A DNA stretch of 64,000 nucleotides, from assembly GCA_003152105.1 (NCBI GenBank), contig PLZJ01000002.1, positions 753,713 to 817,712 of the forward strand, in the 5' to 3' direction. Below, one piece after another: positions 14,456 to 62,862 of this stretch. The stretch's first letter is position 1. Every line of letters starts with the position of its first letter. This stretch comes from Candidatus Levyibacteriota bacterium. GTDB taxonomy: Bacteria > Patescibacteriota > Microgenomatia > Levybacterales > UBA12049. The position numbers and the translations under genes are program-made. The notes beneath the pieces are model-generated. The model saw only the letters and a program-made list of their open reading frames with translations, was not told the DNA's origin and made no database searches.

Positions 14456-14881
14456 ATGGAACCACAACCTAAAAAGATCTTAGTTGTAGAAGACGACGTC
14501 TTTTTAAGTGAAATTTATGTCGATACATTAACAAAAGAGGGATATAATATCGACCGAGCAATTGATGGTGAACAGGCAACACAAAAAATAAAACAAGGTG
14601 GATATGATTTAATACTTCTTGATATCATTATGCCAAAAATGGATGGCATTTCAGTAATGGAAAACTTAAAACAAGATCCTAGTTTTAAGTTAACCTGTCC
14701 GCTTGTATTTTTAACTAACTTGGATAATGAAGAGCAAATGAAAAAAGCATTATCTTTAGGAAACGGCTATTTAATTAAAAGCCTTATGACACCTGGTGAT
14801 TTAGTAACTGAAGTCAAACAATATCTTTCAATGCAATTTGCCCCTCTTACGCAGACGCCACCAACGACACAACAGAATTAG
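14456..14881 (+). CDS. stand-alone response regulator receiver (CheY-like)
   Basis: The receiver fold is KKILVVEDD...DLILLDIIMPKMDG...K with no output domain. The track start 14399 lies inside the promoter TTGACA(14421)-17-TACAAT(14444), and the ATG at 14456 sits exactly 7 nt after the -10, so the mRNA is leaderless. Confidence 0.7.
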   Translation: MEPQPKKILVVEDDVFLSEIYVDTLTKEGYNIDRAIDGEQATQKIKQGGYDLILLDIIMPKMDGISVMENLKQDPSFKLTCPLVFLTNLDNEEQMKKALSLGNGYLIKSLMTPGDLVTEVKQYLSMQFAPLTQTPPTTQQN

Positions 14882-42809: not shown

Positions 42810-42818
42810 TGCTATTTA

Positions 42819-43676
42819 TTACGAAACAAATATATCTTTATTTGCTTGTCTTTTTCCGACAAGTTGCATCCAGTCTCTTGGAAATGATTCTAGTTTTCCT
42901 GCCTTTTTCAATTTAACAAACATTTCATGTGCCGATTCTCTTAATACTTTTCTCGCCACTTCAACTGGAACTCCCGGCAATGTTCCTCCTGCAAAATCAG
43001 CATAATCACAAATTGCATCTACGTCACCCTCGTTCATTTCCACAGCTACTGTTTCTGCTGCAACATCAGTAATTCCTTTTGCTCTTGCAATTCCTACATA
43101 CTCTTCTTGCGTATGTTTAAAATAATTAAGAGGCTTTCCAGGAGAGTATCCCAAAGCTTGTGCTTTTTGTTTACCTAGAACCGCAAGTTCTCCCCATACT
43201 CGTGCTCTATTTCTTGGTGTATTTATATATCCACAACTTATGACAATTACTCCATCAGGACGTAATACACGAGCTGTTTCTTCAAATGCTTCTTCCACAT
43301 CGGTTAAGTGAATACTATTTGCAAAAACGACTACATCAAATTTACCGTCTTCTGCTGGAATTTCTTCAGCTTTACCAACTGCGAATGTTACCTCAGGACG
43401 AAAAGCAAATTTACGCCTTGTTGAAGCAATTGCACTTTCATCTGGATCTACTTCAAGAATTGTCCCACCTGCCAATACTTTATCCTCCTCTAGCAAGAGT
43501 TCAGTCATTGCTCCTTTTCCAGATCCAAGATCTAGTATATGTAGCGCTTGAGGAGCAAGTTGAATAGTCTGTCGATTAATTTCTCTATAAAAACGACGTC
43601 TAGTAAATCGCTCATAAGTATGATCAAAATCAGTAGGAACAGGTGGTGGTGTTTGATGTGTTTGTTCTGGGCTCAT
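42819..43676 (-). CDS. class I SAM-dependent methyltransferase
   Basis: Motif I ILDLGSGKGAMTELL is followed by the post-I acidic ILEVD and motif II FDVVVFANSIH. Confidence 0.65.
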   Translation of the reverse strand: MSPEQTHQTPPPVPTDFDHTYERFTRRRFYREINRQTIQLAPQALHILDLGSGKGAMTELLLEEDKVLAGGTILEVDPDESAIASTRRKFAFRPEVTFAVGKAEEIPAEDGKFDVVVFANSIHLTDVEEAFEETARVLRPDGVIVISCGYINTPRNRARVWGELAVLGKQKAQALGYSPGKPLNYFKHTQEEYVGIARAKGITDVAAETVAVEMNEGDVDAICDYADFAGGTLPGVPVEVARKVLRESAHEMFVKLKKAGKLESFPRDWMQLVGKRQANKDIFVS

Positions 43677-43797
43677 AATTAATTTAGACTGATAATAGTA
43701 GCTTTATCAATGGAAGTCAACAACTATTCCTTGAAAGATCTTGCAAAATAAAATAAAAACTGCTATTGTCTCAAAAGATTAGATCAACTCAACAATA

Positions 43798-45324
43798 ATG
43801 AATAAATCTGCAGAATATCTTGAAGCAAGAGCAGAAACATTGGGTGCACATCTTCATAAAGAACCTTCAAGTGGCGTTTCGATTACTGGATATGCTGCAT
43901 TAACTCCACTTGGTGACACGCAGGAAACTTTTGAAGGAATGTTAAATGGGCAGTCAGGTGTGGTTGAATTTGATGCAAATAATTTTGCGGTAAATGTAGC
44001 AGCACCTGTAAAACATTTCGACCCACTAGAACATTTTGATAGACGCGCACTCCGAGGTGTATCGTACGTTACTGCAATGGCTGATGTATTAACACAAAGA
44101 GCTGCCTTAGATGCTGGACTTATTCAGAGCACAAATGAAATGTTGGGCGACGAATTACCAAGTGGACAGAAACAAGATAGACATAAAATAGGAAGCTCAA
44201 TTGGAAGTGGCATTGGTCCAACCCCTAATATATTACGTATTTATCAACAATTATATAAAGATGTTGAAGGATTGGAAAGTAAATTAAGGCAAACAATTAA
44301 TCCTGAAGAAAGAAGTGAATTAGAAGGTGAAATAAAAGCAAAAATTAGAAAAAACTCTGAAAGAGTAGGACCATTGTGGGGACTGGAAATGTTCCCTGAA
44401 GAAGTAAATTCAGATCCATCTATGAAACTTGGTTATTCTGGACCAGGTATTAGCGATACTGCAGCATGTGCGACTGGACTTTCAAATGCAGTCGAATCTG
44501 TTCGAAAAATAAAAGAAGGTGAAAGTGAAAAAGATTTTGGTGGAGGTGTAGAAGCTATCTTAACTGATCCAAATAATATTCATATTGGTGACATTGGAAT
44601 TGCGTCATTTGCAGCACTTCGCCTTGTGCTTTCTACAGAATATTTTAATATTTTAAAGAAAACAATAACTAGTCCTGAAGAATCTAGCCGGCCTTATGAT
44701 CGAAATAGAGATGGATTTGTTCTGGGCGAAGGTGGAGCAGTTGTTTTATTTGAAAGATCTGATTTAGCAGCAGCAAGAGGAGCAAACGTACATGCAGAAG
44801 TTGTCGGATACAGTAAATCACTGGATGGTAAAGGTCAAACAGATTTGGATGTTGATAATGTTGCAAGAACTATTCTTGAAGCGTGCGAAAACCGTTGGAC
44901 TTATGAAATAGAAGTTCCTGATGTTATATTTGCCCATGCAACAGCTACAAAATCTGGCGACAGAGCAGAGGCAAAAGCATTGTATAAAGCATTTGGAAAG
45001 TTACTGCAAGACATTCCCATTACTGCAAATAAAAGTAATATCGGTCATTTAGCTGGAGGAGCGGGAAGTGTAAATCTAGCAATGGCGATAGAAGCACTTC
45101 GCCAACAACAAATTCCTCATATTTTAAATTTAGTTAATCCTAGATTAAATTTAGAAAATCCGGAAGAAGAAGATGATGAAGAAATAAACCATGTCGTTTT
45201 TGTTAGAAATGAGCCGCTTAAAGGAAACTTTCAAAAAGCACTTATACTTGGGTATGGTTTCGGGGGAAATAATGCTGCAATGTTGATTAGAAGACCAAAG
45301 CTTCATAACTTACTAGTTTATTAG
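43798..45324 (+). CDS. beta-ketoacyl-ACP synthase I/II-like ketosynthase (FabF/FabB family) with insertions
   Basis: The N-terminus VSITGYAALTPLGDTQETFEGMLNGQSGV leads to the active-site Cys DTAACATGL, then HATATKSGD and NIGHLAGGAG, a CHH triad. At 508 aa it carries a charged insert and an acidic C-terminal stretch EEEDDEE. Confidence 0.7.
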   Translation: MNKSAEYLEARAETLGAHLHKEPSSGVSITGYAALTPLGDTQETFEGMLNGQSGVVEFDANNFAVNVAAPVKHFDPLEHFDRRALRGVSYVTAMADVLTQRAALDAGLIQSTNEMLGDELPSGQKQDRHKIGSSIGSGIGPTPNILRIYQQLYKDVEGLESKLRQTINPEERSELEGEIKAKIRKNSERVGPLWGLEMFPEEVNSDPSMKLGYSGPGISDTAACATGLSNAVESVRKIKEGESEKDFGGGVEAILTDPNNIHIGDIGIASFAALRLVLSTEYFNILKKTITSPEESSRPYDRNRDGFVLGEGGAVVLFERSDLAAARGANVHAEVVGYSKSLDGKGQTDLDVDNVARTILEACENRWTYEIEVPDVIFAHATATKSGDRAEAKALYKAFGKLLQDIPITANKSNIGHLAGGAGSVNLAMAIEALRQQQIPHILNLVNPRLNLENPEEEDDEEINHVVFVRNEPLKGNFQKALILGYGFGGNNAAMLIRRPKLHNLLVY

Positions 45325-46971
45325 CTTAGGAATAATTGATCGCTTTACTACAGTCGCTTGCAAATCTTTTATGCCTCCGATAATTGTTCCTTCAGAAGAA
45401 ATAACGATATTACTACCAAATGTGCGTTTATCTAATTGAACAGTTTCTGCGTCATAACAAATTCCATCTCCAGCTCTGACTGTATGATTATCAAAAAAAT
45501 CTGTTTCCCCAATTCTTAAAAATAATGGCATTACATTTGTATCAATTTTTTCAAGATGAACAATGCCAGCTGCTTGGGCAGCACCTTCTATCAACTGATC
45601 TTCAAGTAAAGCAACAACTTCATCATTAGTAACTTGCTTAACCTTTAATCCTTTAATGCTCGCAGTAATTTTATTGTCATGTTCTCGAATTATAGAAACA
45701 TTATATGTGCCATCATCACAGAGCTGCGGTTCAACCCGCAATACTGTTTTTCCATCAGCAGATACAATTTCTTTAAACTCAACTTCTCTAAAGCCTACTA
45801 ACTTAAGATTTCCATCTCCTAATCCTAAATGAGATGAAATTAAGCCAATTGTTTCAATTGCTGCTCTAATTTGTTTGTGTCCTGGAAGTATTTTTGGCAA
45901 TCCACTTTCTGGAGCAAAATGCCCTTCTGCTAATAACTGATCAACATGAACGACACCATAATATGCGCTAGGATCGCCTTCTTTTTGTTTTACCGTTGTC
46001 ACAAGTTGCTGATCATTTTCTCTTGTGACTTGATTTTTTGTTGCTATTGCTCTTCCAATTCCAGATTTTCTATCTTCATCTTGATTATTTCTTTCCATAG
46101 TTTGTACGTAAACCTGTTGTGTTCCATACCACTGCTCAAGCATTGTTTGCGCATCTTCGATATCATTAAAAAATTCAGTATAACCGCTTGGAACTGATGG
46201 ATTTTTTAATAAAGCGATAACTTTTTCTCCTACCTCTGATGTTGGTACAGTTCTTGGGAGTCCAAGTTTATCCGATATAACATTATGCATATCCTCCGCA
46301 GAATACTGACCATTTGACTCTCTTTTTGCTGCTATATTAAATACCATAACATTTGCAGTATCTGGTACGATTGGTGGCGTTACTTCTAAAAATCGTATAC
46401 CCCGCTCTGCCATTTCTGCTTGTCGCTTATGAAGTGATTGTAAATCTTCATATTTGTGTCTGGCAACATTGTCGTATTGTGAAACTATTGATATGGCACC
46501 TCTGAGTTGTGGGTCAAAATGACCTGGCACACTTTGCAATCTAATGATTACACCTCCGTCATTCATGATAGGCAAAAATTGAGTTACTAAATCATTTGAA
46601 GCGTCACTGTTTAGCGCTTGAGTTGATCCAGATGTTACAAGAACTACATAATCTACTTTACCATTAAGCTTTTCTGCTGCTTCTTGAAATAACTGCTTTC
46701 TCCCTTCAGAAGTCGACATATCAGCAGATAAACCATAAGCTGTACCATTATTTTCTGAAACATCATGCAGCACCGTATTTGCCCGCTTTTGCTTATCTCT
46801 AAATGAAAATGCTACCGTTACTTTTTCAGCTGCCAATGCTTTAACGATTGCAGCTCCAATATCTCGATTACCACCAGATACAAAAGCGGTCTTGTCAACT
46901 AAAGAAAGTTCACGATTTATCTGCCTGTCTTGTATTATTTGATCTAATGTTACTGCTTGTTCTGGACTCAT
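45313..46971 (-). CDS. fusion protein: N-terminal SDR with Y-x6-K (enoyl-reductase-like FabI/FabL spacing) + FabZ-like hot-dog dehydratase + extra C-terminal region
   Basis: The N-terminal Rossmann fold has AFVSGGNRDIGAAIVKALA and YDNVARHK (Tyr-x6-Lys). The middle has HFAPESGLPKILPGHKQIRAAIETIGLI, matching the FabZ GHFP...PG...EA.AQ pattern. Total length is 552 aa. Confidence 0.5.
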   Translation of the reverse strand: MSPEQAVTLDQIIQDRQINRELSLVDKTAFVSGGNRDIGAAIVKALAAEKVTVAFSFRDKQKRANTVLHDVSENNGTAYGLSADMSTSEGRKQLFQEAAEKLNGKVDYVVLVTSGSTQALNSDASNDLVTQFLPIMNDGGVIIRLQSVPGHFDPQLRGAISIVSQYDNVARHKYEDLQSLHKRQAEMAERGIRFLEVTPPIVPDTANVMVFNIAAKRESNGQYSAEDMHNVISDKLGLPRTVPTSEVGEKVIALLKNPSVPSGYTEFFNDIEDAQTMLEQWYGTQQVYVQTMERNNQDEDRKSGIGRAIATKNQVTRENDQQLVTTVKQKEGDPSAYYGVVHVDQLLAEGHFAPESGLPKILPGHKQIRAAIETIGLISSHLGLGDGNLKLVGFREVEFKEIVSADGKTVLRVEPQLCDDGTYNVSIIREHDNKITASIKGLKVKQVTNDEVVALLEDQLIEGAAQAAGIVHLEKIDTNVMPLFLRIGETDFFDNHTVRAGDGICYDAETVQLDKRTFGSNIVISSEGTIIGGIKDLQATVVKRSIIPKLIN

Positions 46972-46975
46972 ATTG

Positions 46976-47872
46976 CTATTTAATAAGCGTCATCGCTTGA
47001 ACAACTTCAGGTTCTCTATGCGTTACTAAATATACTATCGCTCTCGCTGCATCTTCTGGAGTAAGATCATCGGAAGAGTTAAGAGAATCTCTTAAAAATG
47101 TTCTTTGCTCATCAGTTAAATCAGCTGTCAATGGAGTATCTACTAATGCAGGTCTTAGTATGCTTGTATAAATATCTCGTTTTACGTTTAACTCCGATGC
47201 AGTTCCAATTGCTATCGCTTCCATGGCACTTTTTGAAGCACTATAATTTGTTTGTCCAGGCAACATTGCATGTTTTCCAATGCTGGAAACGTAAACAATG
47301 TCTCCTCCTTTTGGATCTCTATTTCTAACCATTTTTTTGACTGCTGCTCGAGTTACAAAAAAAGCACTATCGACATTTGTACGCATCACATCATACCATT
47401 GATTCGTTTTCATTGTTAATATAAGGTTATCTTGTTTTGTGCCAACATTATTTACAACAACATCAATTCGTCCAAAAACATCAACTACTCCATTTATTAA
47501 TGCCTCTGCTCCTTCTTCTGTAGTAACATCAGCCGGAATAAAAACAGCATCCGCTCCGTCTCCAATCGCTTTTATTTCTTGAGCAGATAATTCACCCACT
47601 TCTTGCCTTTGAGGTCTGCCATTAATTACTACTTTCATACCCATTTCACCAAATAGCCGTGCGGTAGCAAAACCAATTCCTTGCGTAGAACCAGAAATAA
47701 CAGCCACTTTTCCAGCTAGTTTTTCTCGATCAACTGGAGGAAGCATATCAGGAGAGATACTGTTACCAAGTACACTTGAGATATTTTCTGGCGCAAGACT
47801 TATATTTATTTTCTGCGTAAGTGCTACATTACTTTGATTAGAGGATGATTCACGATCTTGTTCTGAGGTCAT
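46976..47872 (-). CDS. SDR-family 3-oxoacyl-ACP reductase-like (FabG-like)
   Basis: It has KVAVISGSTQGIGFATARLF, NVG and YSASKSAMEA (classical Y-x3-K), with a roughly 50-aa N-terminal extension. TTGACT-17-TATCAT lies upstream at 47890-47930 on the minus strand. Confidence 0.7.
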   Translation of the reverse strand: MTSEQDRESSSNQSNVALTQKINISLAPENISSVLGNSISPDMLPPVDREKLAGKVAVISGSTQGIGFATARLFGEMGMKVVINGRPQRQEVGELSAQEIKAIGDGADAVFIPADVTTEEGAEALINGVVDVFGRIDVVVNNVGTKQDNLILTMKTNQWYDVMRTNVDSAFFVTRAAVKKMVRNRDPKGGDIVYVSSIGKHAMLPGQTNYSASKSAMEAIAIGTASELNVKRDIYTSILRPALVDTPLTADLTDEQRTFLRDSLNSSDDLTPEDAARAIVYLVTHREPEVVQAMTLIK

Positions 47873-47952: not shown

Positions 47953-50900
47953 ATGTGCAATAACTTATATATGAGCAAAATTGCTAATAACTCATTACGT
48001 GAAAATAGCTCACATTTAGTAAGAAACTATTGGGATAAATTTTTAAAACTACCGACAATAATTAAATACGCAGTAGTAATAATGGTTTTTATTCTACTTT
48101 CTATTCCAACTGGACTATTAACAAGACAAAGTTTATTTAATTTTGCTTCACAAACCCAAGGATTTCATGTCATTTCTAATACACTTTATTATAATGACAA
48201 GCCATTTAAAGCATGGGGATTTAATATGGTTGGTGCTTTAGGACAAGCAAATTGTGGAGATGGAACAAGTTCTGATCCAAATGGAAAAGTTGCTGCTCAA
48301 AATTTTAACAATAATGAACTCTCTTATATGGAAAAAAATTGGGGTGCTCCAACTATTATTAGAATTCAGGTCTCTCAACCGGCATTAAGCGGTAAATTAT
48401 CTTCTATTAGCTGGCAAAATTACGCAAGTCAGATAGAAAATGATATTAAATTAGCAGAAAACAATAAGGTCAATGGGATTATAATTGCCATGCAAAATGG
48501 ACAAAATGGCTGTGGAAATAGTGCATCTTATCCTTCGAATGATACAAATGTAGCATGGATGAATTTAATATCAAATACAACAATTAAATCAGATCCTCAG
48601 GTTCTTCTTGAACTATATAATCAGCCTCAAAATAACGGAAATAATAGTAATCAATGGCTCACTTGGAAATATGGGAATATGCGAAAAGGAAGTACTTGTC
48701 GAGCTTACTCTGGAAATATCTTTGGAATGGAATGCTTGGCAGAAAATATTAGAAATAGAGGAGTAAGCAACGTATTAATTGCAGATGGAGCAGACAAAGC
48801 ATCAAATTTCCTAGGAATTAGCCAAAAAGACACCAATACAAATTCTCCAAATTACAATCAAAACTATTTGTTGGACGACCAAAATACTGTTTACGGAATT
48901 GAACCATATGGGCAAGATATCAATTCAAATAATAACACATCGAAGATTATATGGGATGCGAATTTTGGTACGCTTTCTCAAACTAAACCTGTGTTAGTTA
49001 CTGAATGGAATATGACGTTACAAAGCTGTACTCGAAACGCCTTAACAACTCAAGAGGTACAAGCACTTGGGTATCCAACTCCAAATAGTAACCAAACATA
49101 TTACCAATATAATGGGGAAGATAATACATCACCATTTTTCTCATACTTAAGTGCTCACAATATCGGATTAATTGTTAATAGTTTTGACTCGTCAAATACA
49201 ACAATAAGAACTACAAATGCTTCTACTGGTAACTGGAATAATTGGTATCCAAGTAAATGTGAGATGGCAGTTGGAATTAACAATAACCTACCAAATAGCA
49301 GTGCAGGAAACATATTGCCTTCTGGACTTATATATAATATTGGCGTAGGATGGGATGTTTTGCAACAATTCCGACAGTGGGCAGTTTTAACAGACAGAGC
49401 ATTTTTACCTCATATTATTGCTGGCTATTGGCTAACAAATCCACAAGATATTAAAATAGCCGCGAAAGAAAAAGTACAATTTATTCATACGTATGGTGAC
49501 TTCAATAATTTACCAGGAAATGCTTATCCTATACTTAAATCAAATAATATGAAAGTTATTTCTTCAGATTTATTAACACCCCTTAATGATTATGGTTGTT
49601 GGCACTATAGAATGTATCATCCAACCTATAATTCATACATTGCATCATGTAAATCTATGCCAAACGGGTATGCTAATTTTCAAGCCAATGCTTACGGACT
49701 CCAAAGCGCAAATAATTTATTGCTAACAAGAATAAAAAATAAATTAATTGCAATTAGAAACAATACCAAATACGCTTCTTATTTATCTTATCTTTATGTA
49801 ATCGATGACTGGGGTAGCGGAGATTTTAAAAGTGCAAAGACACCTCTGAAAGAAATTAATGGCTTAATTCATACCATTATTCCAGGCGTACAAAGTATTT
49901 GCGGATTTTCGTTTGGGAGCGTACCATTTAAATCACACGCAGGAACAGTAAGTTATTTTGCTAATCCCTTAAATAATTATTCACCGGAAGGTTGTGATAA
50001 TGTCAGTGGATATGGATATGCGGTCAGATATAAAACAGATAGTGCCAAAAATTATGATTGGAAAATGCCAGGCATAATGGAAGCATGGCAAAAACAGTTA
50101 ATAGCAAACGGAATAAGTGATTATCCGAATTGGAATAAAATAGTAAATGTAATTGGTACGGGCCAGGTATTTGGAAGCTACACAGGTAGTTACGTTATTC
50201 CTTTATATGACACTGCAACCGCTAAAAAATTAAATGTACCAATTTATCAACCAATAATTGATCAGGAAACAGATTTTTGTAAGTTAGGAATGTCTTTATT
50301 TTTTTATGACTATCATGCTAGTGGAAGTTATTATACTCCTGCAAACAATACAAGTATTGATGAAGGAGTTAAACAATCTATAATACAATGTAATCAAATC
50401 TGGAACACGATTACTGTTGTCACCCCTACTTTTACTCCAACGCCAACGCTTACACCAACGCCAACGCTTACACCTACACCTACCCCAACCCTATCTCCAA
50501 CGCCTTCTCCAACGCCAACGCTTACACCTACACCCACTTTAACACCTACCTCTACGCCAACTCCACCTCCGGGATGTTTTTATAAACAACAAGAATGCAA
50601 TATTCACAAAGGTCAGGTTAGTTGCGGGCCAGAAATATTAATTTGTACAACTCCAACACCAATTACAGTTATAAATCCTGTACAAAACAAATTAATTAAT
50701 GGGTCATTTGATTTTGGTAATTTAACCGGCTGGACAACGTTTAATAAATCAGTGAATTCTAATACGGTTGCTATTGACCCATCAACATTCGTAAATGGCA
50801 ATTATTCTGTTAAAGCAACTATTAATCAGCCTGGAAAAAAAGAATGGTACTTTCAGTTAATGCAAGGTCCAGTACAGCTTAGCTTAAGCACAAACTATAT

Positions 50901-51162
50901 GATATCTTTTTATGCCAAGGCTTCTCAAAATAGGAGATTACAAGTATTTGTGCAAAACTCAAATCACATTCCATATTCAACGCAAAACTTTATATTGACA
51001 ACTACTTGGCAAAAATATTCATTTAATTATTTTCAACCTTCAACAGATGACAACGCAGCGCTAAAGTTTAATCTAGCTGATGCAGCAGGAAATATTTGGA
51101 TTGATAAAGTATCATTATCCCCGGTTCTGGTTAATATTGAGAATAAAGATACTTTACCGTAA
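47953..51162 (+). CDS. giant secreted/anchored CAZyme-like protein: N-terminal TM, glycoside-hydrolase-like domain, Pro/Thr linker, C-terminal CBM4/9-like domain
   Basis: [18 protein letters not shown] is present. ...LELYNQPQ... and LVTEWN are reminiscent of GH5-clan acid/base and nucleophile positions, but the assignment is weak. The PT linker reads [52 protein letters not shown]-terminal beta-sandwich has [14 protein letters not shown]...WYFQLMQ. The start may be the ATG at 47971, because 47953 lies in the spacer of TTGACA (47936). Confidence 0.55.
50424..50572 (+). repeat. tandem 6-9 nt coding repeats (ACNCCNACN..CTT) encoding a (T-P-T-L)n linker
   Basis: The degenerate repeat reads acgccaacgcttacaccaacgccaacgcttacacctacacc... 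Comparable PT tracts occur at about 52966-53020, 54780-54840 and 55188-55300. Confidence 0.6.
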
Positions 51163-51255
51163 CTGTTCACAAACTCAACTTATTTGATTATTTCTCTTGT
51201 AATTTGGTTGACATGCAAGATATTTTGATCTAGACTCAAAAAAGAAAGAATATAC

Positions 51256-52140
51256 ATGAATTATTTCTTTAAACATAAAATCCCTTTGTTTAAACAAAAA
51301 TTTTCATCATTAGATAAATTCCATAAGCTGAGCATAGGGATTGTATTATTGTTTATATTTGTAACCCCCTCGCTTGCACTTGTCACAAACTTATTCACTA
51401 ACGCCTCTTCCCTTGACTCATTCAGACTAGAGGCAGAACCAACTTCTACAAATAGTAATAGGTTATCTGGAAATGTTAGTGTGGTAACCGATACTAGTTC
51501 ATCTAACGGACAGGCTATACTATTTGGATCTAATGGAGTAAATGGTGCCAATGTTACTTTTAATCCATCAGTTATTCCCTTTTCTGCACCAGAGATAGGT
51601 AATCCATGGCACGGACAATATGAGTGGCAACAAGGACAACTGATCCCTTCACCATGGCCTGTTACAGATTCCTATCTTCGCTACGATACTGCGCCAACGG
51701 ATATAGGCTCTTGGGCTACTCTTGAACCAACACAGGGAAATTATGACTTCTCTTCAATTGATACAGCTTTGGCACAGGCAAAAGCAAATGGAGGCAAACT
51801 TGGAATAACAATTGCTGCTGCAAGAGGAGATATTACGGGTCAAGCATTTATACCAAATTATTTAATAAGTGATATGGCTGGAGATTCACAATCATACTGG
51901 AGTGGAGTTTCACCGGGAAATGGAGTATATGTGCCGGATTGGAATAATAGTTTTTTTATGACACGAGCGCAGGCTCTAATTAATGCGTTGGCTGCAAAAT
52001 ATGCAAATGACCCACGTCTTGGATGGATTGAAACCGGAATTTATGGAAATTATGCAGAGTGGATAAATGATGGTCTTCCAAATGGTCCAAGTGGTCAAAC
52101 ACCTGCTGTAATTACCGATGCAAATAAAAAAACATCATAG
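51256..52140 (+). CDS. N-terminal fragment of a frameshifted giant surface protein (TM anchor + DUF4874-like glycoside-hydrolase-like region)
   Basis: It has the TM IGIVLLFIFVTPSLALV. LRYDTAPTDIGSWATLEPTQGNYDFSSIDTALAQAKANGGKLGITIAAA is typical of the DUF4874 TIM-barrel family. It stops right after an A7 tract. Confidence 0.5.
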   Translation: MNYFFKHKIPLFKQKFSSLDKFHKLSIGIVLLFIFVTPSLALVTNLFTNASSLDSFRLEAEPTSTNSNRLSGNVSVVTDTSSSNGQAILFGSNGVNGANVTFNPSVIPFSAPEIGNPWHGQYEWQQGQLIPSPWPVTDSYLRYDTAPTDIGSWATLEPTQGNYDFSSIDTALAQAKANGGKLGITIAAARGDITGQAFIPNYLISDMAGDSQSYWSGVSPGNGVYVPDWNNSFFMTRAQALINALAAKYANDPRLGWIETGIYGNYAEWINDGLPNGPSGQTPAVITDANKKTS

Positions 52141-52223
52141 ATTGGTGGGTCAACTCTTTTCCTAAAACTAGAATCTTAGCAGTTATTGAAGAAGATGGAG
52201 ATCAATATGGATTTAAATATGCC

Positions 52224-55200
52224 ATGAGCTTAACTCCAAAACCTGGCTCTCCGGCTATTGGGTGGCGGTATAACAGTCTTGGGACCCTTGGACCAACTGC
52301 TAGTTATCTAACAGGACTTCAATATTGGGAAACACCACCACCAGCTGGTGCAGATGGAACAATACTATCGGAGCGATGGAAAACTGCTCCTGGTATAGTA
52401 GAATTTGGTGGTTTATCACCTTCTTCAACTACTGACTCACTTAATGATGCCTATACAGACGTGCTTCGTTACCACATTGATATGGTTGATGGAAGTTATT
52501 TTGATAACTGGAATAATTACTCAAGTGCTGAGCAGGCAACTTTGCAAAATATTATGGAACACTCGGGCTACAGAATTAGTCTTGATTCCCTAACACTGCC
52601 CTCAGTAGTCAGTCCAGGGAATAATTTTACAGTTTCTACTAATTGGTCTAATCTTGGTTCTACACCTGCATATAATCCATGGAATATCATGATTGAGCTT
52701 AAGGACTCATCTGGAAATGTTGCGTGGCAAGGAAAATCAAGTTTAGATTTTCAAACTCTACTTCCTACTAACTCAACAGGAACAGATATTCCAAATACTA
52801 CAACTGATACTTTCACAGTTCCTTCCAGTATTCCTTTGGGAACTTATTCTGTTTCTGTAAAAATAGTAGATCCAACAGGCTATTATAATCCAATGAATTT
52901 AGCAAATTCGGCAAAACAATCGGATGGAAGTTATTTACTTGGTCAAATTTCAGTTGGTAGCTTGGCTCCAACACCAACACTATCACCATCTGGAACTCCA
53001 ATAACTCCTACACCTATTACGAACTCGTCATTTCTTTGGCCAAATATACAAGGTAAAGTAGGAGCATTTTTTATAGGATTAAATAATAATTCAGATGTTG
53101 CACTAACTGCTGGGCAGGGTTTAAATCAAACTGTGCTTGATACAGTAAATCCAGGTAGTAGATTGGAAAATTTATATAATCAGTACAATTTTAAATACTA
53201 TGATTATTATGTCTGGAACCAAATCTACGGCAACTGTCAAACAAACCATGCAGCAGGATACGTTTGTCCATATTATCAAAACTCATCAAATCTACAGTCT
53301 GCATTAAGCGCAATTCAATCACATATTAATAGCAATAGTATTGCGACAGATAAAGCGGTAAGTGGATATGTCATTTTGGACGATTTTCCTGGAATTATTC
53401 CTCAAACATTCTTTGATCAAGTTGCAACTATGATACACAACGCCAATGCTGGATCAAATGGTATGACAAAATCAGCGATTTCCAGACCAACCATATGTGA
53501 CTTCGGAGGGTGGTTGGATTATAAGACAAGTGTAAACGGAGCTTGGAACCATAATGATAACGATATTACAAAACAATCTACAAATTTCTATCCTGCTGAT
53601 TGTGACATGGTCGAGCTTTATCCAGAATGCTACAACGAACCAGCAAATTATTCACATGGGGATTGGTGTGATTGGACAATGCAGGACACTACAGGAGGAA
53701 ATACGCCAAAAATAACTAGAGAATATAACATATTACAAAGTAAAGGTTGGGATATTACTAAAGAACCATTAATTGCCAATGCTCAGTCATATGGCTATAC
53801 CGCCGCCTACCAATCGGGAAGCGGAGTATATATTATTCCTCCTACAGGAATAGAGGAAAGTACTTTAATAAAGTCATATTGTGATACTGGAGCAACTTCT
53901 GTAAATGATTTTGCCTGGGATGATCCTGCTCATGCCTCAAATATTAAATCTGAACTTGCTAACGATTCAGGCATGTATAGCGGATTTTTGAGTGGTGTAA
54001 ATTACTGCAAATCTAAGTGGGGAATAGCTATGGGCCCTTCCTCATCCAAAATAGCAAATGTAAATTCATCATTTAATTTAATATCAATGCTTGGTAAGCT
54101 TGTGCAACATTTTACTTCTATGTTCAGTGCACACGCGCAAACCCTAACACCAACCACAATTCATTTGATTTCAGGTTACTCCGGCACCAATACTGGGGGT
54201 AACACAATTGTTTTTGGACCTCCAAGTGGATACTCAGCAGATGATGTAATGATTGCGCAAATTACAACCCAAGGAACACCAGGAATAACACCTCCTGATA
54301 GTAGTTGGAACGGTATTAAACGTACAAACACAGCTTCAAACTCTTTGGTTCAAGAATTATATTATCATGTAGTAAAAGCTAGTGAACCATCGACCTATAC
54401 ATTTACCTTCACATCCCCAGAACAAGCTTCTGGAGGAGTTGCTGATTATAGTGGAGTTAATACTTCAAATCCAGTAGATCAGGTTAATCAAGGATCAGCT
54501 CTTAACTCTAGTAATATTTCAGCCGCAAGCATAAATGTTAATGCAACCGGAGAAAGACTTATGTTTTTTGGAGGATCACTTTCGAATACATCCTTTACAC
54601 TTCCAACTGGCATGTCACAAGTATGGCAAAAAGAAAATACTGCCATTTCATCTAATTTAGCGGACTTATATACCAATGCTGGCTCAACTGGGGTTATAAA
54701 TGAAAGCAGTGCAGTTTCAGCAGATAATGTTGCACAAGATTTATTACTTCAACCAGCAGGTTCAACTTTTACAAATCCCACGCCAACTTCTACTCTTTCA
54801 ATATCTCCTACCCCAGTCTCAGCTTCACCTACACCCAGTTGTTCTCCTTTACCTAGTGGAAAAGGTACAGATGTTATTACCTTTACAGTACCAACAGGCA
54901 CTAACTCTTATAACGTCTGGTTTAGAATGAAAGTACCAACTTCTGGCGACTCAATTTATTCACAACTTACGGACAATTCCGGCAATGCATTTGGATGTCC
55001 ATCACAAATTATTGATAATAATACAGTAGATGGAAACTGGCACTGGATTCCTCAAGGTCAAAATTCCTTAACCCAGGGACAAACTTACACATTTACTTTG
55101 ACTGGAAATCAAGATGGAGTTAAAGTTGATGAAATAATATTGTCTCAAACATGTGGACCAACAGGAGTAGGCGATAACTGTCTAGCTGCTCCTACACCAA

Positions 55201-55385
55201 CACCTACCTTAACACCTATTCCTTCACCTACAGCTGTTCCAAGCCCAATTACAACATCTACTCCTACGCCTGTCAGACCTACTCCAACATCTACACCTCT
55301 AAGTTGCAAAAAACTTTCTATTAATTGCTATTATACAAATTTAAGTACCTGTTCTTATGTTTGCGGAGACACAAAACATAAGTAG
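52224..55385 (+). CDS. C-terminal part of the same surface protein (DUF4832-like + PT linkers + C-terminal CBM-like domain)
   Basis: The frame is open from 52128 (coding-like NIIDWWVNSFPKTRILAVIEEDGDQYGFKYA) upstream of the first ATG. It has PAIGWRYNSLG...W.TAPG and then multiple PT linkers. The C-terminus has NWHWIPQGQ..TYTFTLTGNQDGVKVDEIIL, a lectin/CBM-like sandwich. Confidence 0.55.
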   Translation: MSLTPKPGSPAIGWRYNSLGTLGPTASYLTGLQYWETPPPAGADGTILSERWKTAPGIVEFGGLSPSSTTDSLNDAYTDVLRYHIDMVDGSYFDNWNNYSSAEQATLQNIMEHSGYRISLDSLTLPSVVSPGNNFTVSTNWSNLGSTPAYNPWNIMIELKDSSGNVAWQGKSSLDFQTLLPTNSTGTDIPNTTTDTFTVPSSIPLGTYSVSVKIVDPTGYYNPMNLANSAKQSDGSYLLGQISVGSLAPTPTLSPSGTPITPTPITNSSFLWPNIQGKVGAFFIGLNNNSDVALTAGQGLNQTVLDTVNPGSRLENLYNQYNFKYYDYYVWNQIYGNCQTNHAAGYVCPYYQNSSNLQSALSAIQSHINSNSIATDKAVSGYVILDDFPGIIPQTFFDQVATMIHNANAGSNGMTKSAISRPTICDFGGWLDYKTSVNGAWNHNDNDITKQSTNFYPADCDMVELYPECYNEPANYSHGDWCDWTMQDTTGGNTPKITREYNILQSKGWDITKEPLIANAQSYGYTAAYQSGSGVYIIPPTGIEESTLIKSYCDTGATSVNDFAWDDPAHASNIKSELANDSGMYSGFLSGVNYCKSKWGIAMGPSSSKIANVNSSFNLISMLGKLVQHFTSMFSAHAQTLTPTTIHLISGYSGTNTGGNTIVFGPPSGYSADDVMIAQITTQGTPGITPPDSSWNGIKRTNTASNSLVQELYYHVVKASEPSTYTFTFTSPEQASGGVADYSGVNTSNPVDQVNQGSALNSSNISAASINVNATGERLMFFGGSLSNTSFTLPTGMSQVWQKENTAISSNLADLYTNAGSTGVINESSAVSADNVAQDLLLQPAGSTFTNPTPTSTLSISPTPVSASPTPSCSPLPSGKGTDVITFTVPTGTNSYNVWFRMKVPTSGDSIYSQLTDNSGNAFGCPSQIIDNNTVDGNWHWIPQGQNSLTQGQTYTFTLTGNQDGVKVDEIILSQTCGPTGVGDNCLAAPTPTPTLTPIPSPTAVPSPITTSTPTPVRPTPTSTPLSCKKLSINCYYTNLSTCSYVCGDTKHK

Positions 55386-55539: not shown

Positions 55540-55812
55540 CTATTTTAGATTATCCAATATCCACATTCTAGCAAGAGTTGTTGGTCCTATTCCTTGTTTA
55601 AATGCTTTATTTCTAATCTCTTGTAAATGTTTTGGCTGAATTCGAATTGTAATTGTGCTTGTTTTATTTGCTTGATGAAATCCAACAAGAGTACCGTCAT
55701 TAATCTCATCAACCGCAGAATGAGTATCCCAAAAGTTAGCTTCTTCCTCGTATGTTTTAAATGGTTTTAGTGGAATAAATTGATGTTCTTTTACTATTTT
55801 AACTTTTGTCAT
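55540..55812 (-). CDS. brnA: BrnA-type antitoxin (CopG/RHH-like)
   Basis: It reads MTKVKIVKEHQFIPLKPFKTYEEEANFWDTHSAVDE...TSTITIRIQPKHLQEIRNKAFKQGIGPTTLARMWILDNL. The FWDTH...RI...G.pyQtL layout is BrnA-like. I set the start at the internal Met because the longer ORF would overlap the toxin gene by 120 nt. Confidence 0.6.
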   Translation of the reverse strand: MTKVKIVKEHQFIPLKPFKTYEEEANFWDTHSAVDEINDGTLVGFHQANKTSTITIRIQPKHLQEIRNKAFKQGIGPTTLARMWILDNLK

Positions 55813-56020
55813 TATCTTCACCTCCTTCAAGAGTATATTCGTTATAAAAACTTTTTTCTTCTTTTCTGGATGGTCTTGCAGTAATAAGACCATACGTGTT
55901 TTTGCTTTTTCGGTGCCCAATTACGATACTTAAATATCTTTTGCTTTTTGTACGACCGATTAAAATCCAGCGATCAAATTTACCTTGAATAAAAACATAA
56001 TCATGGGATATAATCTCCAA
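55799..56020 (-). CDS. brnT: BrnT-type toxin (DUF497), N-terminally disrupted
   Basis: The C-terminus LSIVIGHRKSKNTYGLITARPSRKEEKSFY matches BrnT ...RIISARKATKKE...Y. The reading frame upstream reads ..VEEDR*EHIAKHNISLNEVLEI.., which is BrnT-like (..EWD..KA..N..KHGVSFEEA) but is interrupted by TAA at 56060-56062. No ATG is present, and the track starts at TTG. Confidence 0.5.
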   Translation of the reverse strand: MEIISHDYVFIQGKFDRWILIGRTKSKRYLSIVIGHRKSKNTYGLITARPSRKEEKSFYNEYTLEGGEDNDKS

Positions 56021-56378: not shown

Positions 56379-58253
56379 ATGGATGATTCATTAATATCTG
56401 AAGAAAATAAACCAGTTGATTATTTAATTGAAGGCGAGGGTCAAAATGCAACGATTTCTAGTCCTGAAAGAGTAATAAATGATATACCTGAAGCAGCTGT
56501 AGAAAAAGCAAAATCAAGTAGAGAACTAGTTGAGACAAAACTTCGCCCACAAGATATTCAAGATCAAGCGGGTTTTAGTCGAAGAATATATTCTTTTATT
56601 ACTTTAACTGGAAAAGAAACTAAATTTTCTCTTAGAGGAAGATACGAATTACCAGAAACTGATAGTTCATTTAAAGATATAGGTACAAAACCTCTTGATG
56701 ATGTATTTGTTGGTAATGAGTTCCAAAGTTATAAATCATCACATCGTAGTGAAGCTGAAAGAATTCAAACTACAAAAGATTTCGAAGGCTTCATTGCACT
56801 TTCTGACCAGTTAATTCCTGATAATCCAAGAGTTGAGCAGGCAAAACAAGACATACAAAATGGTGTATATAGCGATGATACCATTACATTTATTAATGAG
56901 CTGGTAGCTACTAGCATAATAGATGACAAAGGTTTAGTTAACAGTGAAATCAATGCTGATGCAGAAGCCTTAATGATACTAGCTTTAAGTGGTAACGCAG
57001 AAGCTCAACGTTTAGTTCAAAGTAAGTCAGAAGCACTTCTTAGAATGGATGATGAGAAAAAACAAAGGGCAATAACAGAAGGAAAATTAAGAGTAGAAGG
57101 AGAATTGAAAGATGTTCCAGATGCGGATATGTCAAGACATTCTCTGGTTCATATTTACGAAGGTCCAGTTGAAAGAGACGAGCATGGAAATGTTATTTTA
57201 AGATCAACTGCATACAGACCAAAAGCCGCCCCATTTGGTCAAGTAATCTTAAGAGACACTATACATACTTCAATAGATGGACCTGTCGGAGAACATGATT
57301 TAGGTAGCTGGGATGATATTGATACTGTAGTAGTTGCTAAAGCAAAAAACAATATTGATAAGGCAGATACAATTAGGCCAGAAGATACCTACTTTCATAT
57401 ATATCCACATCAGGCATTAACCCTTGAAGAAGCAACGGGTATTGTTCCAGGAGAAGTGCCTGAAGATGCGATTATATCAAAGCTGCCTGATGGTAAAACA
57501 ATACTATATAGACGAAATGGATTTACTGTCAGACATTTACAAGAGTATTTGAAATTAAACCCAGAAGCACCTCATGCTCTTACTTCCATTTTAAATAATG
57601 AAACATTTGTTGATTTAGGAAGCATAACAGAAACCGTAAACGCTCTTACGCAATCTTTAAATGAAGACGATGCTTCTTTAAGAGCTGAACCTGCATTAAC
57701 TAAAGGATTAATCAATGTTTATTCAAAAGCTGGAGTAGAAAGATTACAATCGAAATCTAAGAATCCTAGTGACTCCGAATTCCCCACGCTAAGTCGTGAA
57801 GAAATTGCTAAAAGAATAGCTCATTTAATTATTGGAAGGCTGCCTACAGAAATAAGAAATACTGCTGTCAAAGAAGCTATTAGGGATCAAGGCAGCGAAA
57901 TGCATACTATTATGGCTCATGGATGGCAAAACGAACATGATATTGAGATAATTAAATATGCTCTAGAAAGAGGTATAAGTACTGGCGAACACATAAATAC
58001 AATTGCTAGTGAAACTACTGATAAAATCGCTGATGCTTTTGAGTCTGCTGGCACAGAAGGAGGAATTGATAATAATTACATGCCATCATGGGGAGATGCA
58101 ACAGACGATGAAACAAAGGTTGTAGATGTAGTAAAATATGGATACAATTGGAAAAAATATTCATATTCACCTACTCCTAAAGAGATACTTGAATTAGCTC
58201 CACAAACTAGAGCAGATATCTACGATTCCGGAGTATTAACAGCTAGGATATAG
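56379..58253 (+). CDS. orphan acidic hypothetical protein (624 aa, no TM, no recognised domain)
   Basis: It is a long clean ORF rich in D and E. It lies between the BrnTA module and tRNA-Lys(CTT). Confidence 0.5.
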   Translation: MDDSLISEENKPVDYLIEGEGQNATISSPERVINDIPEAAVEKAKSSRELVETKLRPQDIQDQAGFSRRIYSFITLTGKETKFSLRGRYELPETDSSFKDIGTKPLDDVFVGNEFQSYKSSHRSEAERIQTTKDFEGFIALSDQLIPDNPRVEQAKQDIQNGVYSDDTITFINELVATSIIDDKGLVNSEINADAEALMILALSGNAEAQRLVQSKSEALLRMDDEKKQRAITEGKLRVEGELKDVPDADMSRHSLVHIYEGPVERDEHGNVILRSTAYRPKAAPFGQVILRDTIHTSIDGPVGEHDLGSWDDIDTVVVAKAKNNIDKADTIRPEDTYFHIYPHQALTLEEATGIVPGEVPEDAIISKLPDGKTILYRRNGFTVRHLQEYLKLNPEAPHALTSILNNETFVDLGSITETVNALTQSLNEDDASLRAEPALTKGLINVYSKAGVERLQSKSKNPSDSEFPTLSREEIAKRIAHLIIGRLPTEIRNTAVKEAIRDQGSEMHTIMAHGWQNEHDIEIIKYALERGISTGEHINTIASETTDKIADAFESAGTEGGIDNNYMPSWGDATDDETKVVDVVKYGYNWKKYSYSPTPKEILELAPQTRADIYDSGVLTARI

Positions 58254-58540: not shown

Positions 58541-58765
58541 CTATTTTCCGTTTATTGAAGCCAGCAGAAGCAACGATATAAAAAGCATTGATGAAAGACT
58601 AACAATAAGCTGTAGCTTAGATAATCTTTGAATGCTAATTGGCGTTTTTAAGTGAATCGAATGTTCGGCATTTTTAGCACCGTGGAGATACAATAAGTTA
58701 AATATTACAGAACTTAGTATAGTAAAAATACTAAGTGCATAAAAAATTGTATATATATTCATCAT
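58541..58765 (-). CDS. small 2-TM membrane protein
   Basis: The 74-aa ORF overlaps the upstream gene end by 4 nt, suggesting an operon. Its two hydrophobic helices could equally be chance hydrophobic sequence. Confidence 0.3.
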   Translation of the reverse strand: MMNIYTIFYALSIFTILSSVIFNLLYLHGAKNAEHSIHLKTPISIQRLSKLQLIVSLSSMLFISLLLLASINGK

Positions 58766-59385
58766 GTAAATGTTTCGTCAAAATAAGCAAAATTATTTCG
58801 TCGACTTGTATCTCTATACCACATTTCTCCTTGTGGATAATAGTGACCACGCTGCGCATACTCATTTGATAAATGAATCCCGATAACTCTTGAGTTTCTA
58901 ATATTTTCCAAATAAAAGATATCATGGTGCGTAGGACGATCAAAAGTTATAGCAATATTACCCATATCTATAAAATCCGATATTAATCCACTTTTTAACG
59001 TATCTATTTCAGTGCATTTAACTTGATCTAAAAGTACTTGATCTTGATTAAAAGATGCAAGTGGTGAATATCTTACCTCAAGTATTTTTCTCGTTGTTGC
59101 TATATACAAATTAAAATACCAATCAATAAATATTTTAATCAGTAATGAAATAAAAACATTTACTATTGTTATAACAACGGTAAATGCAATCAGCTCTGAT
59201 GAAAAAGATATTATAAACAAATAGACAGAAGCAACAATTCCTAAAAGACTGATAAATGCTAGTGAAAGAAGGGGACCAAGAAGTATAAGGGGATGTTTTC
59301 TAGTAACAACAAGGAGTCGCTCATTTGGCATTGTCAGAAATTTTCGCCAATCTCCCGAGATCACATATTTATTTACATCTTGCAC
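58762..59385 (-). CDS. membrane-flanked bacterial PH-domain protein (bPH_2/YdbT-like)
   Basis: Two TM helices (LILLGPLLSLAFISLLGIVASVYLFIISF; AFTVVITIVNVFISLLIKIF) are followed by a soluble region with the ..YRITnrRi... style pattern (YIATTRKILEVRY). Confidence 0.4.
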   Translation of the reverse strand: MQDVNKYVISGDWRKFLTMPNERLLVVTRKHPLILLGPLLSLAFISLLGIVASVYLFIISFSSELIAFTVVITIVNVFISLLIKIFIDWYFNLYIATTRKILEVRYSPLASFNQDQVLLDQVKCTEIDTLKSGLISDFIDMGNIAITFDRPTHHDIFYLENIRNSRVIGIHLSNEYAQRGHYYPQGEMWYRDTSRRNNFAYFDETFT

Positions 59386-62052: not shown

Positions 62053-62862
62053 CTATTTTGTTAGTAAAAGAGGAGAGAGTGCTTTAGCCAATTTTTCTGC
62101 AATACCTTTTTCTCCTATGACAACACTATAAACATATTTTCCAGACTCTTGTTTCATATCTGGTGGTTTTGAAATATATACACAAGAAAGCCCTGCTTCT
62201 TGAGCAATTAAAACGGGGGCTGCAATATCCCAAATTGCTTCATTTAGCATCATAGTTATATCCATTCTTCCAAGTGCTGTCATGGCTCCATGAAAACAGG
62301 TAGCGCGATAATTTGCTGGAACTCCACAAATTGCAGAAACGGTTTCTATAACTTTTACTTTAGTCTTCGTATCACCAATAAATCCGAAAGTGATAAAGGG
62401 TTTTGGTTTAACAAAACTTTTTCGAAGTACTTTTTTTCCATTATAAAACATACCTTTGCCTGAAAATGCATGAATAGTTTCCCTTAATATTGGAAAAGAA
62501 ATAATACTATAAATTGGTTCATTGCCCTTCCAAAGTGCAATCATCGTTCCAAAAATTGGAATATTATGTGCAAAATTGTTCGTTCCATCAATTGGATCTA
62601 TAATCCAGTTATATTCTTTGATGTTTTGTTTTCCTTCTTCAGTAATAAAACCAATTTCTTTTGAAATCTTACGTAAGCTAGTTCGAAGATAGGAATCTAT
62701 TTCTTTATCAGTTTTTGTTAAAATTGCATTTGAAAACGCATATCCTTTTTTCCATTCAAGTGTAGTTTCTTCTTGAAACGCCTTATAAATGAGCTTATCT
62801 GTCTTTTTAAGAATTGCAGAAACGCTTCTGTGTATTTCTTGGAGTGGAACTGGAGTATTCAT
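62053..62862 (-). CDS. inositol monophosphatase family protein (SuhB/CysQ/FBPase-like)
   Basis: The metal-binding motif WIIDPIDGTNNFAHNIPIFGTMIAL (W..DP.DGT) is followed by the C-terminal WDIAAP.LIAQEAG. Confidence 0.8.
   Translation of the reverse strand: MNTPVPLQEIHRSVSAILKKTDKLIYKAFQEETTLEWKKGYAFSNAILTKTDKEIDSYLRTSLRKISKEIGFITEEGKQNIKEYNWIIDPIDGTNNFAHNIPIFGTMIALWKGNEPIYSIISFPILRETIHAFSGKGMFYNGKKVLRKSFVKPKPFITFGFIGDTKTKVKVIETVSAICGVPANYRATCFHGAMTALGRMDITMMLNEAIWDIAAPVLIAQEAGLSCVYISKPPDMKQESGKYVYSVVIGEKGIAEKLAKALSPLLLTK

Follow-up and report, generated by a model that had tools for sequence, protein, structure and literature searches.

Two open reading frames (ORFs) called side by side in the window (the whole 64,000-nucleotide stretch of DNA analysed here) are two pieces of one ancestral gene. 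The reading frame changes between them at or next to a run of seven adenines (A7, 52126-52132, + strand) in the context ...gat gca aat AAA AAA Aca tca TAG. Inserting one base produces a single ORF of 1376 amino acids with no internal stops. An earlier note on this DNA had proposed that a 1-nt frameshift at the A7 tract splits one gene and that one extra A would restore an ORF of ~1380 aa; homologue alignments, tblastn and a structure model bear out the split, and translation bears out the repair. We consider it probable, if well short of certain, that a recent and real A8-to-A7 deletion gave rise to a young, possibly reversible pseudogene.

Homology across the frame break

A protein search with a fused 521-aa query returned about 30 homologues, each a single ORF covering about 90% of it. 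The earlier note had held that split orthologues would speak against its reading; every homologue proved to be uninterrupted. In the closest of them (P0002), the residues encoded by the 32 junction codons, NIIDWWVNSFPKTRILAVIEEDGDQYGFKYA, align gap-free to TLIDYWNKEMPHTRLVVLIEESGDGYGFTYS, with 15 of 31 positions identical by hand count, and the alignment passes through the junction itself without a gap (TDANKK-N-IIDWW against TDANKK-T-LIDYW). In tblastn, every one of ten homologues matched through a frame-1 HSP that reaches no further than 52134 and a frame-0 HSP. The frame-0 HSPs start at 52128 in seven, at 52134 in two and at 52083 in two, the last being a chance upstream extension. Residue numbering is continuous over the frame switch (P0002 residues 101-295, then 294-580). 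We also translated about 10 homologue loci through the junction (8 in genomes of Ktedonobacteria, Chloroflexia and others, and 2 on metagenome contigs), and all were uninterrupted.

Conserved residues are distributed on both sides of the break. Alignment A1 contains 48 invariant columns, and the fused sequence is included in all of them. The invariant residues, among them E109, E220, R290, W327, E335 and H359, are divided between the two ORFs, so that one invariant glutamate lies in ORF1 (E220) and another in ORF2 (E335). In an AF2 model, the break falls where helix 240-253 begins, after barrel strand 207-211 and before strand 258-262; as modelled, it lies inside the conserved barrel and is predicted to be destructive. 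The supposedly intergenic codons encode this helix and the next barrel strand, RILAV (258-262).

Frame 0 has a TAA at 52125-52127, is open from 52128 and reaches its first ATG at 52224, 32 codons on, before ending at 55385. The 32 stop-free codons described in the earlier note are thus present. On their own they are weak evidence because 7.6% of 32-codon windows in the off-frames of the window's genes are likewise stop-free, and we regard homology, not the open codons, as the decisive evidence for a single gene. The flanking stops bound the missing base to about 52128-52137, with the A run as its likeliest site, and the tblastn HSPs tighten this interval to 52128-52134. The deleted base could also sit just past the A tract: adding a base there instead (ACA+N) gives KKT[I/L/V/F]IDWW, which fits KKTLIDYW of P0002 at least equally well.

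Architecture of the reconstructed protein

With one base restored, the gene would encode a secreted or anchored multidomain glycoside-hydrolase-like protein (Table 1), in which the junction-spanning stretch reads ...ITDANKKNIIDWW.... ORF1 contributes a hydrophobic N-terminal segment, the leading half of the barrel, with strands up to model residues 207-211, and the invariant Glu of YAEW (52051-52062). The hydrophobic segment, LSIGIVLLFIFVTPSLALV, is a putative signal peptide or signal anchor. Homologues carry an equivalent hydrophobic N-terminus in the alignment, and among the two translated ORFs such an export segment is found in ORF1 only. Together with the Pro/Thr linkers, this segment suggests that the product is exported.

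The N-terminal part is predicted to fold into a (beta/alpha)8 barrel resembling clan GH-A, with a DUF4832 domain after it. Evidence for the barrel comes from PDB profile matches to GH42/GH35/GH10 chains, from Foldseek matches to GH35, GH14 and GH5 barrels (probability 1.0) and from the alternating strands and helices of the AF2 model (pLDDT 79, pTM 0.80). The Glu of the IVEFGG motif (E335) has a putative catalytic role. At the ATG called as the start of ORF2, the family has an internal Met or Leu (FKYAM / FTYSM / LSYAL).

Among the domains that the earlier note had named, DUF4832 stands, with its modelled beta-sandwich reaching about 52955. DUF4874 (PF16173) falls away, having no Pfam match at E ≤ 0.01 on the fused protein; the N-terminal half weakly matches Glyco_hydro_42 instead. 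We likewise do not retain a C-terminal CBM-like domain, the sole basis of which is sub-threshold GEVED/PPC matches. No above-threshold match was found by Pfam search for domains 2, 3 or 4. Domain 2 shares 27% identity over 335 residues with P0038, and domain 3 shares 29% identity over 197 residues with the N-terminus of P0039.

Table 1 Features of the split gene and its upstream region (positions in the window).
Feature	Position	Strand	Basis or remark
Best sigma-70-like promoter match of the region, TTGACA-17-TAGACT, 10/12	51208..51236	+	Consensus match only
Reconstructed single gene, 1376 codons with one base restored	51256..55385	+	
ORF1 as assembled, 294 aa, ending ANKKTS, TAG 52138-52140	51256..52140	+	
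Hydrophobic segment following Lys-rich N-terminus	51328..51384	+	Translation
Pfam Glyco_hydro_42 (PF02449) match, residues 150-255, part of the barrel	51703..52020	+	25.3 bits, cut-off 21
A7 homopolymer, where the 1-nt deletion most likely occurred; an ancestral A8 would encode N-K-K-N	52126..52132	+	
Frame-switch interval	52128..52137	+	After frame-0 TAA 52125-52127, before frame-1 TAG 52138-52140
So-called 'intergenic' stretch, coding in frame 0	52128..52223	+	Alignment, tblastn, structure model
ORF2 as called, 1053 aa, without export signal	52224..55385	+	
IVEFGG motif, second family-invariant Glu (E335, numbering of the alignment query)	52395..52412	+	Barrel strand, model residues 332-336
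Pfam DUF4832 (PF16116) match, fused residues 390-541	52422..52877	+	61.7 bits, cut-off 29.2
Pro/Thr linker 1	52965..53021	+	
Domain 2, ORF2 residues 272-600	53037..54023	+	Intact
Domain 3, ORF2 residues 653-844	54180..54755	+	Intact
Domain 4, ORF2 residues 876-979	54849..55160	+	Sub-threshold GEVED/PPC matches only
Pro/Thr linkers flanking domain 4	54774-54848 and 55188-55298	+	
Cys-rich C-terminal tail, 28 residues, LSCKKLSINCYYTNLSTCSYVCGDTKHK	55299..55382	+	

Compared with the DUF4832, GH42-like family, the N-terminal 570 residues of the fused protein align over ~90% with some 30 members, at 33-52% identity for the 17 in alignment A1 and down to 24% for the most distant by BLASTP. Unlike the rest of the family, this member has ~800 extra C-terminal residues, made up of three further domains and Pro/Thr linkers, and a frameshift. 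A literature search found no characterised activity for the family. Within this uncharacterised glycosidase-like family, the restored sequence is a multidomain member of unusual length. For annotation, the two calls (294 and 1053 aa) are best joined into a single gene carrying a frameshift flag, which avoids counting two proteins or a novel 'DUF4832-only' architecture.

No sign of programmed recoding at the A7 tract

The best promoter match lies 19 nt upstream of the ORF1 start, in a region where the number of such sites is not above shuffle expectation, and no comparable site occurs between 52141 and 52223. Shine-Dalgarno motifs precede only 6 of the 51 genes, so this signal is uninformative about the ORF2 start.

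Ribosomal -1 slippage on A-AAA-AAA was offered by the earlier note, together with slipped-strand phase variation, as one of three explanations beside a homopolymer sequencing error and a recent pseudogenisation. That heptamer is out of register: the ORF1 frame reads AAT AAA AAA ACA, which gives T-AAA-AAA. No X XXY YYZ heptamer is present in the ORF1 frame, which has T AAA AAA or A AAA ACA instead, and single-tRNA slippage on A AAA is the only possibility at the tract. RNA folding likewise revealed no stimulatory signal: the 100 nt downstream have an MFE of -15.3 kcal/mol where shuffles average -18.0 (z +0.91), and the 141 nt around the site also fold worse than their shuffles (z +1.76). No GGAGG-like element was found upstream of the tract in 52100-52125, and Rfam returned tRNAs only and no known recoding elements. 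The frameshift is shared by 0 of the ~30 homologous proteins, a sample of relatives that are not close, and the one homologue that has an A6 there, at the matching NQKK position, has an unbroken frame. Without a heptamer, a structure or a conserved shift, the evidence weighs against programmed -1 slippage.

Origin of the frameshift

The A7 tract is of ordinary length for its genome. Long homopolymers inside the 52 ORFs of the window number 84 (82 of A or T, 7 or 8 nt long, and two of C, 6 and 7 nt long), and the A7 at the break is the only one that disrupts a reading frame; the other 83, of which 15 are 8 nt long, stay in frame. Sense-strand tracts in the 51 genes comprise 42 A7 and 12 A8, where synonymous shuffles predict 34.1 and 13.4. 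Tracts of at least 9 are absent (about 8.6 expected for A and T together from shuffling), and the split gene itself has only two tracts of at least 7. The genome has a GC content of 33%, and the scaffold measures 1.14 Mb. Two other ORF pairs considered as split genes were rejected, since they encode unrelated proteins: transglutaminase-like and UvrC (32770/34517), and holin-like and CofD (38373/37426).

Under the pseudogene reading, one base would have been lost between 52128 and 52137, most likely when replication slippage cut an A8 tract (AAT AAA AAA AAC, encoding N-K-K-N) to A7. We infer that the organism itself, and not just the consensus, carries the deletion, and that the lost base belonged to the A run. 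Translation from the ORF1 start would end at TAG 52138 after 294 codons, leaving a truncated product that comprises the export signal and the first barrel half and is probably inactive. The remaining 1085 codons would not be productively expressed because an export signal, a canonical start at the junction and a detectable promoter are all absent; full-length protein could arise from the A7 allele only through low-level unprogrammed slippage of polymerase or ribosome. We found no further disabling mutations: no stop interrupts the 1085 downstream codons, and homologues match domains 2 and 3 over their full length. This lack of further damage downstream suggests that the event is recent. Tracts of this kind readily gain and lose bases, so the frameshift may be reversible. 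Recombination with the upstream 1069-aa neighbour as a paralogue was also considered and rejected, BLASTP similarity being not significant.

We searched for other alleles of the gene. Identical ORF1 (P0001) and ORF2 (P0034) are found on three deposited contigs of different lengths at NCBI and ENA; all three carry the split form and could share one read set. The two others besides the present contig measure 1,149,594 bp and 0.2-1 Mb. The restored 1376-aa protein was not found in a collection of 15 billion proteins by two protein searches or by exact look-up of two restored sequences. Screening genome contigs with a family profile recovered no same-species genome and only distant homologues (27-39% identity), and six peptides of the fused protein recovered only one relative, at 40%, from metagenome contigs. 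No literature match was found for BioSample SAMN07125042.

An intact A8 gene in the organism, with the missing A being a sequencing, assembly or polishing error, is possible but in our view unlikely. Homopolymers are a classic site of indel errors, the break is at or adjoins one, the gene is otherwise intact over 1376 codons, and a single error per 64 kb fits a polished long-read or hybrid assembly. Against such an error, the many in-frame homopolymers of the window (83 of 84, 15 of them of 8 nt) indicate that the assembly is not generally error-prone at such tracts, the same split recurs on all three deposited contigs (with the proviso that they may stem from one read set), and an intact version is absent from every collection searched. 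The undamaged downstream part would be equally expected from a consensus artefact or from an ON/OFF switch. That the two ORFs are genuinely separate genes for two functional proteins is hardly credible: gene callers do annotate two genes, but a conserved helix and strand are encoded by the 32 codons that separate the stop from the first ATG, the ORF2 ATG is an internal family position and every homologue is a single ORF. Because the split falls inside the (beta/alpha)8 barrel, invariant residues lie on both sides and the export segment is confined to ORF1, a designed two-gene arrangement is excluded.

It is also doubtful that the tract is functional, whether as an A7/A8 contingency locus or through programmed -1 ribosomal or transcriptional slippage from the A7 allele. 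Large exported or surface proteins are a gene class typically under phase variation, and the product here is large and predicted to be exported or surface-exposed, with an undamaged downstream part. Poly-A tracts can moreover support productive transcriptional slippage, as in Citrobacter rodentium tssM1 (PMC4256274). A functional tract is opposed by the missing heptamer and upstream element and by flanking RNA that folds worse than shuffles (z +0.9 and +1.8). It is opposed too by the ~30 homologues, none of them frameshifted and the sole A6 homologue intact, by a tract frequency not above background, by the absence of longer tracts, by the position of the tract at codon 290, far from the 5' end, and by the OFF state of every deposited contig. 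With A7 and A8 tracts so common, dozens of intact genes would be damaged if slippage on A7 were efficient. The evidence does not specifically support phase variation, and we find it very unlikely that the tract switches a giant secreted glycoside-hydrolase-like protein ON and OFF or acts as a valve on its synthesis through low-level transcriptional slippage. If an ON/OFF reading were true, the population would consist mostly of OFF cells with an ON minority. Were A7/A8 heterogeneity real, the locus would be a modest case of phase variation from an uncultivated lineage; without it, the locus is an everyday young pseudogene or reflects one error in the consensus.

Known systems place the favoured reading, a young frameshift pseudogene, in context. 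Homopolymer contingency loci occur in phase-variable surface genes of Campylobacter, Helicobacter, Haemophilus and Mycoplasma, where the tracts exceed the genomic background in length and show length polymorphism. The present locus resembles them in having a mononucleotide tract within the coding region of a predicted exported protein, with a 1-base change switching the frame, and differs in that its tract is of ordinary length for its genome. Programmed transcriptional slippage typically involves tracts of 9 or more; the tract here is A7, not a long A/T tract (at least 9) of the tssM1 type. The C. rodentium tssM1 run comprises 11 A, its arrangement is also conserved in Yersinia and each of the two products is required (PMC4256274). 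As in tssM1, the gene is interrupted just past a poly-A run and an added A restores full length. Unlike tssM1, the run is A7, the split is not shared by any relative and the truncated product is half a barrel. To our knowledge, the endosymbiont poly(A) frameshifts proposed as rescued involve longer tracts, unlike the 7-nt tract here. For such endosymbiont genes and for the present one alike, low-level rescue by polymerase infidelity is conceivable (PMC3017870; PMC5574713). RNA polymerase insertions rise exponentially with run length, and Traverse and Ochman detected no frame-restoring transcription errors (PMC5574713). The split gene is like the poly(A) frameshift pseudogenes of Buchnera and Blochmannia in that a 1-base change lies in or next to an A tract in an otherwise intact gene, and its host, at 33% GC and rich in A/T tracts, is like those AT-rich small genomes.

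One gene across two reading frames

Rereading the sequence and its frames bore out every coordinate in the earlier note, which had described a giant surface protein split by a 1-nt frameshift in an A7 run. The sequence at 52114-52140 is ACC GAT GCA AAT AAA AAA ACA TCA TAG, and ORF1 ends in ...AVITDANKKTS*. The frame of ORF2 is open from 52128 to its first ATG and beyond, and one added A yields a single ORF of 1376 codons. Stop-free 32-codon windows amount to 7.6% in the off-frames of the window's genes; 32 open codons are unremarkable alone, and homology therefore carries the case.

Searching with the N-terminal 521 residues of the fused protein retrieved ~30 proteins, all single ORFs with ~90% query coverage. 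P0002, its nearest homologue (53% identity), aligned across the junction without a gap (ITDANKK-N-IIDWWVNSFPKTRILAVIEED in the fused protein, MTDANKK-T-LIDYWNKEMPHTRLVVLIEES in P0002), and the called start of ORF2 fell inside the family alignment, at a Met/Leu column. Each of ten homologues compared with the window by tblastn gave an HSP in frame 1 that ends no later than 52134 and another in frame 0, starting at 52128 in seven cases and 52134 in two, with residue numbering running on unbroken across the switch. We retrieved homologue loci from genomes (nine, mostly Ktedonobacteria and Chloroflexia) and metagenome contigs (two). In keeping with the single gene proposed earlier, all ten loci translated through the junction were uninterrupted there; none has a long homopolymer at the junction, and one carries A6 at the same N-Q-K-K position with its gene intact. 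We regard the finding as real and correctly described: a 1-nt deletion at or adjoining the A7 tract interrupts one exported, multidomain glycoside-hydrolase-like DUF4832 gene.

The switch must lie 3' of the frame-0 TAA and 5' of the frame-1 TAG. Restoring A8 reads NKKNIIDWW, while an extra base after ACA (52134) reads NKKT[I/L/V/F]IDWW, a fit to NKKTLIDYW of P0002 that is at least equal. Mutation is far more probable in the homopolymer, as a prior and not a demonstration.

Features of the split gene and its surroundings
Feature	Position	Strand	Details
ORF1	51256-52140	+	294 aa; frame 1
Lys-rich, hydrophobic N-terminus	51328-51384	+	ORF1 only
TAA in ORF2 frame	52125-52127	+	frame 0
A7 run	52126-52132	+	
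Bounds of frame switch	52128-52137	+	
ORF2	52224-55385	+	1053 aa; frame 0; first ATG at 52224
Cys-rich tail	55299-55382	+	28 residues; end of split gene
Ketosynthase-containing cluster	41778-47872		
Upstream neighbour	47953-51162	+	1069 aa
Small overlapping gene pair	55540-56020	-	
ORF	56379-58253	+	624 aa; no Pfam match; example in start-motif survey
ORF	58762-59385	-	207 aa; no Pfam match
Gene	14847-16298	-	example in start-motif survey
Gene	40699-41667	-	example in start-motif survey
Gene	62053-62862	-	example in start-motif survey

Protein domains and gene neighbourhood

Two families had been named for the protein: DUF4832 held up (Pfam, 61.7 bits), whereas DUF4874 had no Pfam match on the fused protein. 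Glyco_hydro_42 matched weakly, above the cut-off. Searched against the PDB, the family profile found chains of GH42, GH35 and GH10. An AlphaFold model from the alignment (pLDDT 79, pTM 0.80) shows a (beta/alpha)8-type barrel with a beta-sandwich after it, and Foldseek matched GH35, GH14 and GH5 barrels. The reading frame changes where helix 240-253 begins, between strands 207-211 and 258-262 (model residues). ORF1 holds the family-invariant Glu of 'YAEW' and ORF2 that of 'IVEFGG', which we infer to be the catalytic pair.

Beyond the break, 1085 codons are still open, and the lack of secondary lesions implies an event that is recent, reversible or artefactual. Domain 2 (ORF2 residues 272-600) and P0038 share a 335-residue alignment; for domain 3 (ORF2 residues 653-844) and P0039 the alignment spans 197 residues. 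The C-terminal domain previously called CBM-like drew only GEVED/PPC matches, all sub-threshold. A Cys-rich tail (LSCKKLSINCYYTNLSTCSYVCGDTKHK), possibly for sorting or anchoring, follows the last Pro/Thr linker.

The upstream neighbour is also large and exported-looking. It contains long Pro/Thr linkers and, C-terminally, a CBM_4_9 domain; Pfam matches nothing in its first 849 residues, and it was rejected as a paralogue of the split gene. Genes for a FabH-like ketosynthase III, a methyltransferase, a KAS I/II-like ketosynthase and two short-chain dehydrogenases make up a cluster that may encode a small lipid or polyketide-type pathway beside the two exported-protein genes. Directly downstream of the split gene, the overlapping pair (CopG_antitoxin match above cut-off, BrnT_toxin below) resembles a BrnT/BrnA-type toxin-antitoxin module. 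Across the window, a GGAG/GAGG/AGGA motif lies upstream of the start in 6/51 genes and a TATAAT-like box ends 3-12 nt before the start codon in 7/51 (2.1% of random positions), a pattern that points to limited use of Shine-Dalgarno sequences and to leaderless mRNAs for some genes.

Origin of the frameshift

We favour, with somewhat better than even confidence, a genuine young frameshift allele: a pseudogene, possibly reversible. A single consensus error is a lesser possibility. Within 52 ORFs of the window lie 84 long homopolymers: 82 of A or T, measuring 7 or 8 (15 of them 8), and two C runs, one of 6 and one of 7. Of these, only the A7 run at the junction interrupts a frame, so the assembly shows no general weakness at tracts of this kind, which counts against an error. 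Other overlapping ORF pairs in the window, considered as split genes, were rejected as unrelated genes. The window lies within ENA scaffold WOOD18-1_SAMN07125042_METAG-scaffold_5 (1,139,039 bp), and three differently sized, possibly non-independent contigs (NCBI, ENA) encode ORF1 and ORF2 proteins of identical sequence. The restored allele was absent from the protein collections searched, and genome and metagenome contig searches found no same-species contig elsewhere. We give a true two-gene arrangement almost no credence, given the single-ORF homologues and the internal position of the ORF2 start. A designed arrangement is excluded because ORF1 alone has the hydrophobic N-terminus and, upstream of it, a promoter-like site, the best of the region; the same region search found none before ORF2. 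The split gene is an ordinary kind of event, and in practice the two gene calls need merging and flagging.

Functional phase variation or recoding is improbable. The slippery A-AAA-AAA heptamer suggested earlier is out of register; the ORF1-frame codons are AAT AAA AAA ACA, so that single-tRNA slippage alone is possible. We found no stimulatory RNA structure (z +0.9 downstream and +1.8 around the site, folding worse than shuffled controls), no SD-like element upstream of the tract, no Rfam match other than tRNAs and no homologue sharing the split. Sense strands of 51 genes carry 42 A7 and 12 A8 tracts, near synonymous-shuffle expectation. In this genome of 33% GC the A7 tract is nothing unusual, and efficient A7 slippage would therefore harm dozens of intact genes. 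A7 and T7 tracts are slightly over-represented on the sense strand of the window ORFs. A or T tracts of at least 9 are absent from the sense strand of the 51 genes, against ~8.6 expected for A and T together (~5.6 A and ~3 T by synonymous-codon shuffles; observed coding-region maximum 8), which suggests that tracts longer than 8 are selected against. Low-level unprogrammed rescue, or reversible A7/A8 switching in the population, is conceivable, with nothing specific in its favour. Insertions by RNA polymerase increase exponentially as runs lengthen (PMC5574713), and known productive slippage sites, such as the 11 A of Citrobacter tssM1 (PMC4256274), exceed the A7 here in length.
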